Positions 52,732-57,359 of a DNA stretch of 64,000 nucleotides are shown here, piece by piece. The position numbers were made by a program, and so were the translations under genes. This DNA comes from an uncultured Holophagales bacterium (GTDB taxonomy: Bacteria > Acidobacteriota > Thermoanaerobaculia > Multivoradales > UBA5704): contig CAWJGT010000012.1 of NCBI GenBank assembly GCA_963842525.1, positions 32,001-96,000 on the forward strand, in the 5' to 3' direction. The notes below the pieces were generated by a model that did no database searches, was not told the DNA's origin, and saw nothing but the letters and a program-made list of their open reading frames with translations. Numbering within the stretch: the stretch's first letter is position 1; every line of letters begins with the position of its first letter.

Positions 52732-53801
52732 ATGCCACTCCCGGGCTACCCCGCCCTCCGCAAGCTGCTCTTCCGCCTCGACCCCGAAGCGAGCCACGGC
52801 CTCGGGATCGGAGCCCTCCGCGCTCTCCAGTCCGTGCCCTCTTTGGCCCGGGCGGTGGAGCGCAGGTATCGGATCGACGCGGCGCCGCTGCGGCAGACCC
52901 TTTTCGGCCGGGTCTTCCCGAACCCGGTCGGCCTCGCCGCGGGGTTCGACAAGGACGCGGTCGCCGTCCGCGGCCTGGCGGCGCTCGGCTTCGGCTTCGT
53001 CGAGGTCGGGACCGTCACCCCCCGGCCCCAGGCCGGCAACCCGCGCCCGCGGCTGTTCCGCCTGCCGGAGGCCGGCGAGCCTCCAGAACGCCCTCGGCTT
53101 CAACAACGCCGGCATGGAGGCCGCCCGCCGCCGCCTGGAGACGGCTCTATCCGGCTCCGGTCCCCCTCGGGGTGAACGTCGGCAAGAACAAGGCGACGCC
53201 CCCGGAGGAGGCGCTCGGCGACTATGAGATTCTGATCCGGACGCTCGAGCCGTTCTGCGACTACCTGGTGGTGAACCTCTCCTCGCCGAACACCCCGGGC
53301 CTGCGCGACCTCCAGAACGAGACCTTCGTACGCGCTCTGCTGGCCGCGGCCTCCGGTCTCACGCGTAAGCCGGTCCTGGTCAAGATCGCTCCGGACCTTG
53401 ATCCTGACGCTGCCGCCACCCTGGCCGAGGTGGCGGTCGAAGCGGGCGCCGCCGGGATCGTGGCCACCAACACGACCAACGACTACTCTCTCCTGCCCGG
53501 GGTGAGGGATTTCGGCGGCTTGTCCGGCAAGGTGCTGCGGGAGAAGAGCTTCCGGGTGTTCGAAGCCGTAGCCCGACGCCTCTTCGGCCGCGCCGTGCTC
53601 ATCAGCGTCGGAGGGATCGACTCCGGGGCCGAGGCCTACCGGAGGATTCGAGCCGGCGCCTCCCTGGTGCAGGTCTACACCGCGCTGGTCTACCAGGGGC
53701 CGTCGCTCGCCCGCCGGATCAACGAGGAGCTGCTGGCGCTGATGGAGCGGGACGGGGTGAAGGAGATCGGGGAGGCGGTGGGGGCGGACGTCACTCCCTA
53801 G
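52732..53801 (+). CDS. pyrD: Quinone-dependent dihydroorotate dehydrogenase (frameshifts ~53075-53160)
   Basis: [51 protein letters not shown]. Confidence 0.92.
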
Positions 53802-53803
53802 CC

Positions 53804-53853
53804 GCCCGGGCATGAATGCCCGGGCTAGGAACGGCGCCGGGTAAACCCGGCTT
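53804..53853. repeat. REP-like double hairpin after pyrD
   Basis: GCCCGGGCAT-GA-ATGCCCGGGC followed by GCCGGGT-AA-ACCCGGC. Confidence 0.6.
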
Positions 53854-54273
53854 CAAAGCCCCAGTCATGGGGCGCCGACGGAGTAAGAAGGCCGAGCAGG
53901 GATGCCGGCGCTCCCAGGCCCACGCCCCGCCCCAAGGACGATCCCACCGTACTGATCTGGGCAATTCGGACTGTCGCCTCTCCAGGCCCTTGATTCTACG
54001 CTACTTAACTCCTGCTCGGCCGTTACCCCCCTTTCTGGCCTGTGCGGAAGTCCTCCCGGGAGTCGTTTTTCAGCTTCGTTCACGCTTGTAACTCTCGTCT
54101 TTTCAGTGAATTGAGCTCTCCGCCGTTACCCCGCTGACAAAACGCCATTTTTGAGCTGGCATGATTTGTGACCGGCACGATTCTTTCCTGGCTGGACGGG
54201 TTGTCAAAGAGCGCGTCTCACCTGCTGTCTACTTCGACACGGTCCGCCGGAGATCTGTTGGACGCGGTTTCTT

Positions 54274-54330
54274 CCCTGGGAGCGCCGGCATCCTCGCGTC
54301 TGAGCCGGCGGGACGCCAGCGTTCCCAGGG
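54274..54330. repeat. REP-like palindrome of a second family; half copy at ~53895-53918
   Basis: CCCTGGGAGCGCCGGCATCC...GGACGCCAGCGTTCCCAGGG; GGGATGCCGGCGCTCCCAGG near 53900. Confidence 0.65.
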
Positions 54331-54340
54331 CCCACGTCCC

Positions 54341-54991
54341 CGTCGCAACATGTCCATCACCCGTCGCAGAGCGTAGAGACACTGTCGCAGTGTAAAGTGT
54401 CGAGCCCGTCGCATCGCGGCGCTTTGTCGCATCGCATTGGGCACTGTTACAGCGTAAGCTCACGCTGTCGCAGAGGATGGATGCTCTGCGACAGCGTGAG
54501 CTTACACTGTCGCAGAGGCAGCTTACGCTGCGACTGCGGAGCTTGCACTGTCGCACGGTCTTGCGAGCCCCGGACGATGCCTCCTCACTCCGGCACAATG
54601 CAGCCAGACAATGTCGCACATGCTTCCAGTCATGTTGCAGAGTGTTGCCGCATCGTCGCGCAGTCTCCAGGCGCTGTCGCGGAATGCTGCTACGCTGTAG
54701 CGGCGTCGCCTGATCTGTTTCAGCGTGGGGTACACCTGTTGCATCGTCCAGGAGCGTTGCCGCAGGTCTCGTTGGCAAGGGGTCGCCGCGAGCCGGCACT
54801 ACGTAAATGCCTGGTGCGTTGCGACAGCGTCGAGGGGCAACGGGCCGGTGTCGCTCCGCCCGATTCAACGGCAAGCTGACACTGTCGCAGCGTCAGCATA
54901 CCTGCGACAGAGCAAGCGTGCAGGGGGTGCGGTTCGGCTTGGTTGCGACACCGCAGATCGCTTCAGGAGAAAGCTGCGTGACGTTGCGACA
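54341..54991. repeat. Non-coding array of TGTCGCA/TGCGACA heptamers with 20-21-bp period
   Basis: Motif or near-motif starts at 54341, 362, 383, 425, 445, 466, 487, 508, 529, 549, 612, 633, 654, 675, 696, 716, 737, 758, 820, 883, 903, 944, 985. Confidence 0.85.
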
Positions 54992-55014
54992 GCCTCCGGA
55001 GAGACGAGATGAGG

Positions 55015-55284
55015 CTACTCCAGCAGCCCTCCCAGGTGCTCGACCAGCCGCTCGACCCGGCCGCGGATCTCCTGGCGCTCCTCGACCCAGCGCTGGGCCT
55101 CGCCGGGGGAGGCCGCGGCGGCGAGGCGCTCTTCCAGCTCCTCGATCCGCCGGTGGAGCGCAGTGTTCTCGCTCCGCAGCTCGCGGAGGCGTTCGCCCGC
55201 GGCGCGGACCTTCTCCTCCAGCACGGTCATCCATTCGGTGCCGGTGTCCGCCATGGGCGGCTCGGCGGTTGCAGTCTTGGCCAT
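55015..55284 (-). CDS. ZapB-like coiled-coil protein
   Basis: LEEKV..LRELRSEN..EERQEIRGRVERL; TGATG-coupled to pheT. Confidence 0.7.
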   Translation of the reverse strand: MAKTATAEPPMADTGTEWMTVLEEKVRAAGERLRELRSENTALHRRIEELEERLAAAASPGEAQRWVEERQEIRGRVERLVEHLGGLLE

Positions 55285-57359
55285 CAGGACCTCCATCCGA
55301 AGCGGCGCTCGAGCTCCGCCGTCAGGGTGCTCTGGCGCTCGTTGACCTCGTCCTGGGTCAGGGAGCGCTCCGGCGAGTTGTAGAGGAATGAGATCGTCGT
55401 GTTCACCGCCCCCTCGGGCACGCCCTGGCCCTGGTAGCGGACCTTGAGCCCGTACCAGACGAGGTCGGCCGGCCGCAGCCCGGCGATCACCCGGTCGATG
55501 TCCACCCAGGGGGTGGCGAGCGCGTGCGTCAGGGTGAAGTCGGCGTCGATGGCCGGGTGGCGCGAGGGGATCTCCACGGCCAGGCTCTGCTCGCCGCCCG
55601 TCAGGCCATCCAGGGCGACCTCGGCGACATAGAGAGGGTAGCCCTCGTCCTCCTCGACCCGACCCAGATAGCCGATCACCTGGCTGTCCGCCGAGGTCCG
55701 GTCCGGCCGGAACAGCTCGGCCGTGTTGCCGGCGAGCAGCCCTTTGAGCTCGGCAGGCCGTGCCTCCAGAGGCACCCCGAGCGCCTCGGCCAGGCCCTCG
55801 ACGGCGCCCTTCAGGTCGAAGAAGTCGAGCTCCACCTCCCGCTGCCAGGGGTTGCCCACCGTGCCGCCGCAGACCAGGCCCAGGACCTCGGGCTCGTCCG
55901 CCGGGTCGGGGGTTCCCTTGTAGAAGACGCTGCCGATCTCGAACAGCCGCACCGCGGGGAGACCCCGCCGCTGGTTGAACCGGGCGGTCTCCACGAGGTT
56001 GGGCAGGAGCGACCGGCGCAGCACCGCGTAGGCCTCGGAGAGCGGGTTGGCGAGCGCCACCGGCTCGGCAGGGGGGAGCAGGCTGTGGAAGCGCGCGTCC
56101 TGCGCCCGGCTCTGGAAGACGAAGTGGACCGCCTCGGCGTAGCCGGCCGCCGCCAGGTACCCGCGGACGCGGTCGCGCAGGCGCTGCCGCGGCGTCCGCG
56201 GGCCGTCCGAGCCCATCAGGCTCGGCAGGGTCGACGGGATGCCGTCCAGCCCGTGGATGCGCAGGACCTCCTCGAAGAGGTCGGCCTCGTAGGCGCTGCC
56301 GTCCGGCCGCGGCTGGAAGTCGAAGAGGCGCCAGGAAGGGACCGTCACGTTCCATAGACCGTCGCCGGTGCTCTCCAGCCTGAAGCCGAGCCCGGTCAGC
56401 CAGCGCTCGGCGTCGGCCGCGCGGATCTCGATCCCGGCGAAGGCGTTCAGCCGGGCAAGGTCCAGGCGACCCCCGAGAGGCTTGGGGAAACCTTCCCGCC
56501 GCTCGTCGATCGCTCCGGCGAGGACCGTCCCACCTGCGGCCTGCGCGATCAGCAGGGCCGCCCGGCTGGCCGCCTCCAGGCAGGCTTCGGGGTCGGCCCC
56601 CCGTTCGAAGCGGTGGCTTGCGTCGGTGTGCATGCCGAGCCCGCGCGCCGTGAGGCGTACCTGCTTGCGGTCGAAGTGCGCGCTCTCGAGCAGGATGTCG
56701 GTCGTCGCGTCCGTGACCTCGCTGTCGGCGCCGCCCATGACGCCGGCGAGGCCCACCGGCCGCTCGGCGTCGGCGATGACCAGCATGCCGGGAGCGAGCT
56801 TGCGCTCGACGCCGTCGAGGGTGGTCAGAGCCTCGCCCTCGCGCGCAGGCCGCACCACGATCTTCGCGCCGGCCAGCTTCGCGAGGTCGAAGGCGTGGAG
56901 CGGCTGGCCCATCTCCCAGAGGACGAAGTTGGTGACGTCCACCACGTTGTTGATCGACCGCAGGCCGATGGATTCGAGGCGCTTGCGCAGCCAGTCCGGG
57001 CTCGGGCCGATCCTGACGCCGCGGACGACCCGGGCCACGTACCGCGGGCAGCCCTCGTCGTCCTCGACCTCGACGCTTGCGGCGTCCTGGCTGCGCTCCG
57101 TGCGCTTCGGGCGGGGCGCCGTCGGGCCGAGGGGCCGGCGCAGCGGCCGGTCGTAGAGGACCGCCGCCTCCCGCGCCAGGCCGAGATGGTTCATGGCATC
57201 GGGCCGGTTGGTGGTGACCTCGACGTCGAAGACGGCGTCGCCGTCCCGCTCCTCGATGCTGTCGGTGTTGAGCCCGGCGGCGGTCAGCCGCCGGGCCAGC
57301 TCCTTGGGATCGGCCGGGAGGTCGACGTACTCGGCGAGCCAGCTCCGGGAGAACAGCAT
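55284..57359 (-). CDS. pheT: Phenylalanine-tRNA ligase beta subunit (short form without the OB tRNA-binding domain)
   Basis: WLAEYVD, TNRPD, INNVVDVTN, GQPLHAFD, ASHRFERG, LFEEVLR, C-terminal anticodon-binding domain. Confidence 0.95.
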   Translation of the reverse strand: MLFSRSWLAEYVDLPADPKELARRLTAAGLNTDSIEERDGDAVFDVEVTTNRPDAMNHLGLAREAAVLYDRPLRRPLGPTAPRPKRTERSQDAASVEVEDDEGCPRYVARVVRGVRIGPSPDWLRKRLESIGLRSINNVVDVTNFVLWEMGQPLHAFDLAKLAGAKIVVRPAREGEALTTLDGVERKLAPGMLVIADAERPVGLAGVMGGADSEVTDATTDILLESAHFDRKQVRLTARGLGMHTDASHRFERGADPEACLEAASRAALLIAQAAGGTVLAGAIDERREGFPKPLGGRLDLARLNAFAGIEIRAADAERWLTGLGFRLESTGDGLWNVTVPSWRLFDFQPRPDGSAYEADLFEEVLRIHGLDGIPSTLPSLMGSDGPRTPRQRLRDRVRGYLAAAGYAEAVHFVFQSRAQDARFHSLLPPAEPVALANPLSEAYAVLRRSLLPNLVETARFNQRRGLPAVRLFEIGSVFYKGTPDPADEPEVLGLVCGGTVGNPWQREVELDFFDLKGAVEGLAEALGVPLEARPAELKGLLAGNTAELFRPDRTSADSQVIGYLGRVEEDEGYPLYVAEVALDGLTGGEQSLAVEIPSRHPAIDADFTLTHALATPWVDIDRVIAGLRPADLVWYGLKVRYQGQGVPEGAVNTTISFLYNSPERSLTQDEVNERQSTLTAELERRFGWRS

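Follow-up and report, generated by a model that had tools for sequence, protein, structure and literature searches.

Why should a near-perfect 27-bp hairpin (54449–54510) stand between two convergent genes on the chromosome of an uncultured Holophagales bacterium? The hairpin was found in a 64,000-nucleotide stretch of DNA (GenBank assembly GCA_963842525.1, contig CAWJGT010000012.1, positions 32,001 to 96,000; hereafter the window, in whose coordinates positions are given), and the original prediction, made from the letters of the window, was that it belongs to a phased array that grows by inverted duplication or template switching, or whose units are invertible. Here we describe the array as a lattice of short cores spaced two helical turns apart (54340–55013), related copies of which lie directly upstream of genes for a small protein with a predicted DNA-binding domain. 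We infer that such a lattice is an array of docking sites for that protein, and thus the cis half of a lattice-plus-binder cassette, and we regard this as probably the right explanation.

A helically phased lattice contains the hairpin

The hairpin itself was borne out. Of the 27 positions in its arms (54449–54475 and 54484–54510), which an 8-nt loop separates, 26 are complementary, and in a repeat search the arms lengthen to 35 nt (54444–54478 and 54481–54515) at 89% complementarity. Folded as single-stranded DNA, positions 54441–54518 reach −34 kcal/mol (z = −9.1), a stability matched by none of 200 dinucleotide shuffles (mean −13.0, standard deviation 2.3), and the longest hairpin with one mismatch in 30 mononucleotide shuffles of 53800–55010 measured 8–10 nt, as against the 27 observed.

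The arms are part of an orphan lattice that extends over 54340–55013 (plus strand, with its gene-proximal end on the right) and in which the core TGTCGCA (written '<') or TGCGACA ('>') occurs every 20.8 bp. Twelve exact cores fall within 54383–54991, and 22 cores fall within 54341–54991 if one mismatch is allowed (10 of them carry the mismatch); the window as a whole holds 19 exact matches where 6.95 would be expected, including these 12. The 12 exact cores are phased at 20.8 bp with a resultant of 0.99, and because this period equals two turns of B-DNA, the cores all fall on the same helical face. The lattice has a G+C content of 61% and contains no A+T-rich block.

The geometry of the lattice suggests where the hairpin comes from. 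From 54445 to 54555 the orientation of the cores alternates every 21 bp, and Tandem Repeats Finder (TRF) reports 54449–54555 (plus strand) as 2.6 copies of a 42-bp tandem (score 130, 81% matches), the unit of which is an inverted pair of 21-bp units with the core order −,+,−,+,−,+. The spacers between convergent cores are near-palindromic (GYGTRAGCTYACRC); spacers of this AAGCT/AGCTT type had been said to recur in neighbouring units and near 54875. They do recur, and an inverted pair lies near 54875, at 54871–54921. The left arm of the hairpin comprises a spacer (S1), a '<' core (TGTCGCA, 54466–54472) and GAG, and the right arm comprises CTC, a '>' core (TGCGACA, 54487–54493) and another spacer (S3), both on the plus strand. 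Since the cores alternate every 21 bp and the spacers are near-palindromic, a long hairpin arises as an arithmetical result, and on balance we take it to be a by-product of the geometry of protein sites rather than a structure required to fold.

Two head-to-head core pairs stand out within the lattice. The first, CTGTCGCAG-N12-CTGCGACAG (54465–54494, no strand assigned; −543 and −522 in the coordinates of the lattice), spans the centre of the hairpin and is our candidate for a two-fold symmetric operator at which assembly might nucleate. The second (54871–54921, again without a strand) has its cores at 54883 ('<') and 54903 ('>'), about −126 and −106 in the coordinates of the lattice, and arms (54871–54890 and 54902–54921) that are 80% complementary. 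The hairpin is therefore not the only inverted pair of units in the array, as the original prediction had required.

The lattice is one copy of a multi-copy cassette

The genome from which the window derives (G000; 9.95 Mb in 34 contigs) holds at least eight TGCGACA arrays, of which the window array is referred to below by its contig, C12. Of eight such arrays two have a gene and six are solo or decayed. The intact genes of this class lie at C9:1898259–1898780 and C30:111729–112244, where the lattices (at C9:1898780 and C30:112244) stop 24–66 bp before the ATG of paralogous proteins of 172–174 amino acids (aa). Only a gene stump lies beside the arrays at C3:1116408 and C9:1148675, and the other arrays have no gene. 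Intact cassettes thus have a phased array immediately upstream of the binder gene, and the window copy lacks the gene.

What the window copy retains is the edge of the cassette. The array is 68% identical to C34:414666–415296 over 664 aligned columns, its right end shares homology with C3:355573–355708 at the gene-proximal end of the latter, and the homology to the gene-proximal end of the C3a array runs up to position 55013. Just inside that point lies a relic of the ribosome-binding site and start codon of the cassette (ggagagacgagATG; 55009–55011, plus strand) with no protein gene after it, and a tblastn search with 14 paralogues found no family gene around the window array (locus L005). 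Judged by its sequence, the window array is a gene-less copy of the cassette.

Outside the TGCGACA class the same arrangement recurs with different cores. The binder family has 19 gene loci on nine contigs (of up to 2 Mb) in this genome, with 21 matches counted in a separate family search, and paralogue arrays use the cores TGCCGCA, AGTCGCA and TAAGCTTATCCACCGC at periods of 19.6–20.8 bp. The duplicated unit is array plus gene alone, as seen when L044 5530–6658 is compared with L045 7240–6089.

The positions and orientations of the cores are themselves conserved. Counted from the real or relic start codon, the plan −24>, −65>, −106>, −127<, −190>, a run of '<' cores, −524> and −545< recurs in six to seven arrays. 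The junction of '<' then '>' at about −545/−524 is common to C12, C9b, C3a and C30; in C34 it lies 20 bp closer to the start, after a one-unit deletion, and C3b has the '<' at −546 with no '>' partner within one mismatch. The junction at about −127/−107 occurs in six of seven mapped arrays, C9a being the one that differs. In particular, CTGTCGCAG-N12-CTGCGACAG is present with no mismatches in the window and at C9:1899297 (C9b), and with one or two in C3a, C3b, C30 and C34; the control gave two matches per strand genome-wide. A pair of AGTCGCA-class cassettes, with proteins about 41% identical to the TGCGACA-class protein, follows the same plan in outline.

The cassette protein is predicted to be a winged-helix dimer

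The binder is a protein of about 170 aa, in which AlphaFold2 (AF2) predicts an N-terminal helix of 62 residues joined by a disordered linker to a winged helix at the C terminus; in a model built from a 14-row alignment (predicted local distance difference test score, pLDDT, 80.9), these parts span residues 7–68, 68–89 and 94–166. The nearest folds found with Foldseek were DNA-binding winged helices of Fur/Zur, PadR and Rok (best E 2.4e-3), and the nearest named Atlas clusters were HARE-HTH (0.88) and then Rok-like (0.85), which are leads only. DUF3253 (PF11625, cut-off 22.1 bits) matched three of 14 paralogues, at 30.2, 26.3 and 22.0 bits; the other 11 scanned, the P0001-type protein included, had no DUF3253 match. 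A search of PDB sequences with the family profile gave nothing below E = 0.4, and the Pfam, PDB-sequence and Foldseek searches revealed no recognizable catalytic domain.

Modelled as a homodimer, the protein scored 0.58, where the best control scored 0.01, with at least 56% of contacts agreeing between runs and a partner pLDDT of at least 71; the mark used was reached by 20 of 30 proteins whose solved structure is a pair of one chain and by one of 23 solved as a single chain, a calibration that is rough since we used an alignment of our own. The modelled contacts (21:42, 28:35 and 32:32) predict that two copies pair as an antiparallel coiled coil, each end of which bears one winged helix. On one face of the N-terminal helix (residues 22–39 of P0003), at the predicted dimer dyad, lie the invariant R22, H28, E32, H35 and R36, which could form a metal or ligand site.

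Cores are conserved, and the arms covary

If the cores were the sites that the protein recognizes, they might be expected to change more slowly than the DNA between them. With the core columns taken from a third array, C9b, C12 and C34 are identical at 61 of these 70 columns, compared with 367 of the 570 remaining columns (Fisher p = 7e-5). Each of the 20 pair comparisons printed gives 76–96% identity at cores and 41–70% elsewhere, in alignments anchored by the cores themselves, a point taken up again below. The pattern suggests that orphan copies are still constrained at their cores, which are preferentially conserved.

The same two arrays are informative about orientation and length. All cores shared by C12 and C34 point the same way; there is an additional overlapping site in C34, and two C34 cores have no scored counterpart in C12. 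The lengths of the two differ by exactly one unit of 21 bp, indicating that array length changes by whole units. Of the 14 pairs between the arm spacers S1 and S3, two differ between the arrays by compensatory double substitutions (T·A to C·G; G·C to A·T) and a third is broken by a single change, and by our rough arithmetic the chance that both S1 changes would be matched is about 0.004. Of the 14 positions of S1 in C34, 12 pair with S3 and just eight are self-complementary. Either of two processes would fit such covariation: template switching that corrects a quasi-palindrome, or selection that maintains two-fold symmetry.

These comparisons bear directly on the proposal that the array has grown recently by inverted duplication or template switching, or that its units invert. 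Recent growth of this kind would account for the 2.6-fold repetition of the 42-bp unit, for arms that match at 26 of 27 positions when overall identity to C34 is 68%, and for a difference of one whole unit between C12 and C34, and two compensatory double changes are what a one-step quasi-palindrome correction would be expected to leave. However, C34 already shows the alternation of cores at the homologous place, and the '<>' junction has the same position in C9b, C3a and C30; being shared, the arrangement predates the divergence of arrays that are now 68–78% identical. Inversion fares no better, in that no shared core is flipped between C12 and C34, the plan is shared with distant arrays, and no recombinase was found among 12 open reading frames (ORFs) scanned at 45–62 kb, six of which matched no family. 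We consider growth by recent inverted duplication or by invertible units unlikely; the part of the original prediction that may stand is template switching, as one option for homogenization of the arms.

A different possibility is that the stem-loop is itself the functional object, as a DNA cruciform or as a transcript hairpin involved in processing, attenuation or termination. Its predicted fold is strong (z = −9.1), the two compensatory changes keep C12 and C34 paired, and minus-strand transcription of a pheT–zapB operon would continue into the array. Yet there is no T-run, and no terminator-like site was found in 53700–55400; an Rfam search of 53000–56000 (E ≤ 1, both strands) returned only microRNA-like matches of 36.7 and 32.6 bits, below the gathering score of 68, and we rejected an RNA gene. 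A non-integer spacing of 20.8 bp maintained over 650 bp suits helical phasing of a duplex and not RNA, and other paralogous arrays keep the facing cores, whereas the long arms are unpaired in C9b (the one array checked, by hand). A role for the folded stem-loop strikes us as distinctly unlikely.

Cassettes recur across the family, and the window array is an insertion

Of 92 genomes of the family, 72 hold genes for the binder protein, with 1–21 matches each. A search of 1.84 billion proteins gave 459 cluster representatives at E ≤ 0.001, of which 125 reached E ≤ 1e-30, and the named relatives were metagenome-assembled genomes (MAGs) of Holophagales, Thermoanaerobaculia and Acidobacteria. An upstream phased array accompanied the gene at eight of eight loci from named MAGs and at 20 of 20 loci from 20 family genomes, so that all 28 homologue loci examined outside the genome of the window carry a 20–21-bp phased upstream array. 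At the 20 loci from family genomes the best upstream period was 20.0–21.0 in every case, and phased 6-mer pairs numbered 25–644 upstream compared with 9–32 in the downstream control.

Unlike the cassette, the window array itself is a local feature. The genes pyrD and zapB are convergent neighbours in all four same-genus genomes, and the array is absent from the spacer between them in all four, with no core there; the spacer measures about 30–300 bp in three of these genomes and consists of 1.6 kb of other sequence in the fourth. On this comparison the array is not ancestral at the pyrD–zapB locus and is an insertion relative to kin. The 1.6-kb spacer (G001, L034 2795–4438) holds ORFs of 206–293 aa and no array, and the pyrD–zapB spacer seems to tolerate insertions. 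When the array was compared by blastn with 40 relatives, only a part resembling a repetitive extragenic palindrome (REP) at 54300–54342 matched, and 54400–54640 had no match in five same-genus genomes; arrays evolve too fast for a DNA search of this kind to find them.

An array that is inserted relative to kin might be a non-autonomous mobile element, a derivative of the cassette resembling foldback elements or miniature inverted-repeat transposable elements (MITEs), moved by the small protein or by an unlinked transposase. C12 and C34 are gene-less yet homologous end to end, as though the solo array had been copied, and the array is missing from the spacer in all four same-genus genomes. In G091, a genome from a different genus, the two-core pattern has 39 matches, and at the six loci inspected there the solo arrays (about 250–300 bp, with sharp ends) are whole-length copies of the array upstream of the one cognate cassette of that genome, G091:C28:44844–45344, with which they align from end to end; by a hand count, the 13-nt ends of these solo arrays match in inverted orientation at about 9–11 positions. 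Insertion sequences (ISs) of the IS21, IS91 (with an integrase), IS110 and IS66 families adjoin several arrays. However, these belong to four unrelated families, the protein has no recognizable catalytic domain, no target-site duplication was identified at the solo arrays of G091 that were inspected, and similarity between ends is expected in a lattice of bidirectional motifs. Mobility of this kind thus seems to us an improbable account of the array, and it is compatible with the view that the array is a binding lattice.

Several mobile-element genes near arrays were recorded in their own right. Genes for a tyrosine recombinase and an IS91-family (Y2) transposase at L014 7297–9357 and L019 7393–9453 are 97% identical; each pair begins about 600–700 bp beyond a TGCGACA array, and the two arrays are only 75% identical, so that the pair reflects either targeted insertions or its later conversion. 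Beside the C24 array, L013 1151–3633 carries an IS21 element (istA, istB), a 78-aa fragment of a TIR domain and a gene like those for NACHT-associated endonucleases, and on the other side of this array a penicillin-binding protein gene is split into two ORFs. The C24 array was also considered as a transposon end belonging to the neighbouring rve/Mu-type gene; that gene pair is the IS21 istA/istB, which was rejected as the binder, as it lies more than 300 bp from the array and is absent at the other arrays.

Comparison with known systems

Phased arrays upstream of the gene for their own binding protein are familiar from plasmids. In the ParR/parC systems of R1, pB171 and pSK41 and in TubR/tubC of pBtoxis, the binder coats one DNA face of a phased array upstream of its gene and so builds a higher-order complex; the operons include a motor (ParM or TubZ), the repeats have an 11–12-bp period, and ParR is a ribbon-helix-helix protein. 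Here, too, the binder gene lies downstream of a phased array. In contrast, the period is two turns, the DNA-binding fold is a predicted winged helix, and no motor gene recurs: in the Pfam-scanned flanks of 15 loci there was no recurrent NTPase (ParM, ParA or TubZ), and the one FtsZ gene seen, 3 kb from L040, looks like the cell's own.

The iterons of plasmids such as P1, F, pSC101, R6K and pPS10 are 17–22-bp units at a spacing of about 22 bp, directly upstream of the initiator gene and often with inverted copies, which Rep dimers use. The similarity of this layout (units upstream of a gene, with inverted copies) to that of the cassettes raises the possibility that a plasmid-type origin became integrated into the chromosome and decayed, leaving the window array as its iteron field. 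Such an origin would not be expected to recur, as the cassette does here, at 19 gene loci and in further solo arrays of a single chromosome; moreover, the binder is predicted to have one winged helix and a coiled coil in place of the two-winged-helix Rep fold, the array (61% G+C) has no A+T-rich block that could serve for unwinding, and no helicase, primase, partition or other replication gene recurs beside the 15 loci. We consider an iteron origin highly improbable.

In its predicted architecture (coiled coil, flexible linker and C-terminal DNA-binding domain in the AF2 model) the binder resembles Rok, H-NS and Lsr2-type proteins, and the Rok winged helix is among the fold matches (rank 33, 5zuz). 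Proteins of this type bind A+T-rich DNA with low specificity, and to our knowledge none has a dedicated lattice beside its gene, whereas the cores described here are G+C-rich, specific and strictly phased.

A further close parallel in layout is plasmid R388, in which StbA, an autoregulated helix-turn-helix protein that requires no NTPase partner, acts at the centromere-like site stbS. A preprint describes stbS as two sets of five 9-bp repeats with 2-bp spacers, in an 11-bp cycle, to which dimeric StbA binds cooperatively (bioRxiv 10.1101/2022.04.29.490116). On that description the systems share phased short repeats directly upstream of the gene for a small DNA-binding protein, further small groups of repeats elsewhere on the replicon and the lack of a requirement for a dedicated motor gene. 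They differ in period (20.8 bp, or two turns, here; 11 bp in stbS), in the number of sites (about 22–30 cores over 650 bp here; 10 repeats in stbS) and in the placement of the DNA-binding domain, which is C-terminal behind a 62-residue helix here and N-terminal in StbA; no sequence relationship to StbA was found, with no search aimed at it. The arrays described here also have cores in both orientations, in a fixed pattern, and are chromosomal, with up to 21 matches per genome.

As to location, the window array does not lie on a plasmid or separate replicon; it is chromosomal, between pyrD and an infC–rplT–pheT–zapB block. On the features that could be tested, the lattice does not belong to the plasmid-partition or origin families.

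Neighbouring genes and other repeats

The spacer that contains the lattice is 1.2 kb long and separates the 3′ part of pyrD, encoding dihydroorotate dehydrogenase (53172–53801, plus strand; PF01180, E 5.9e-45), from a gene for a ZapB-like coiled-coil protein (55015–55296, minus strand; PF06005, E 2.1e-8). The latter closes the infC–rplT–pheT block, and 2 bp separate its stop codon from the point where the array homology ends. Two ORFs run across the array (54397–54879, plus strand, and 54218–54874, minus strand) and neither matches a Pfam family; since, in addition, the 20.8-bp period is not codon-like, we rejected the array as coding sequence. A plus-strand ORF over zapB (55009–55383) was set aside as antisense noise, the Pfam match belonging to ZapB on the minus strand. 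A chromosomal replication origin was likewise rejected, as the window has no turn in GC skew and many copies of the array exist.

Several other repeats lie between pyrD and the lattice. Positions 53941–54194 consist of one degenerate repeat (53941–53973) of the clustered regularly interspaced short palindromic repeat (CRISPR) type followed by about 220 bp; the stretch is 80–81% identical to the flanks of three CRISPR arrays on C14 (about 60 repeats, 77-bp period) and 72–78% identical to stretches on C22 (a CRISPR array of eight repeats) and C3, and from these similarities it looks like an orphan CRISPR leader plus repeat. A perfect 19-nt inverted repeat (53900–53918 and 54275–54293, 356 nt apart) encloses this piece and could be a REP unit pair or the ends of a small element. 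A short dispersed REP-like repeat at 53816–53877 has two small G+C hairpins and at least 12 copies in the genome (85–97% identity), and a second, at 54300–54342 (GGGACGCCAGCGTTCCCAGGGCC), recurs in 13 other genomes of the family.

Elsewhere in the genome there are very homogeneous tandem arrays with a 62-bp unit, at C3:776100–776700 (about 10 units visible), C3:831800–832230 (seven visible) and C32:133130–133420 (five visible). Each unit is made up of three sub-units of about 20.7 bp with the cores CTCCGCAAA, CTGGCGCAG and CTGGCCCAG, and contains a 26-nt stretch 92% identical to the left arm of the hairpin; no binder-family gene adjoins these arrays on C3 and C32. A CRISPR identity for the lattice was considered and rejected, the 62-bp and 77-bp arrays being separate things.

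A docking-site model

We propose that the cassette protein would dock on the cores of the lattice, one winged helix per core, along one face of the DNA. The facing cores of CTGTCGCAG-N12-CTGCGACAG would best suit a two-fold dimer and might thus form a high-affinity or nucleation site; assembly would start at the two head-to-head junctions, and the lattice would then fill cooperatively. The gene-less copy in the window could be occupied in trans by the proteins of C9:1898259–1898780 and C30:111729–112244. Candidate roles for such a complex include autoregulation, an architectural or bridging function, and the maintenance or spread of the cassette itself.

Several observations weigh against this proposal. 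The link between protein and lattice is drawn from adjacency, co-variation by descent and conservation, and because cassettes of common descent share both protein and array, differences in core between paralogues cannot count as independent proof that the cores are recognized. The neighbouring genes vary from locus to locus and point to no function, and phasing is weak upstream of four to five of 15 paralogues in the window's genome. Direct repeats make up most of the cores of the lattice, and a strict two-fold dimer would need its flexible linker to fit them. The core-versus-spacer alignments are anchored by the cores themselves, which qualifies the contrast reported above. Finally, the compensatory changes sit in spacers S1 and S3, not in the cores, and would not have been predicted from binding; the equivalent spacers of C9b pair at only seven of 14 positions (hand count), and the long 27-bp pairing is specific to the C12/C34 lineage.

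A more ambitious form of the proposal is that the cassettes are sequence-addressed modules for bridging the chromosome, which we think quite unlikely. In such a scheme the dimer, modelled as a rod of about 9 nm, would tie together cores on two DNA segments; the eight TGCGACA arrays would pair into loops or hubs, and the other core classes would form separate sets that do not cross-react. Solo arrays would then be selected, or be spreading, as extra anchor points, and H28, E32, H35 and R36 might make bridging dependent on a metal or ligand.

We found no paper on a lattice-binder module in the literature searched, which left most subscription journals outside its coverage. If the docking-site proposal is correct, many soil Acidobacteriota would carry up to about 20 private lattice-binder pairs per chromosome, plus selected solo lattices, and these would constitute a chromosomal, multi-copy counterpart of the centromere and iteron modules of plasmids, built on a two-turn period and a fixed code of orientations. 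For annotation, the lattices would explain long, hairpin-rich, gene-free spacers without recourse to RNA genes or switches. With one small protein and one 670-bp DNA, the cassette may also provide a simple test bed for higher-order nucleoprotein complexes on phased sites.

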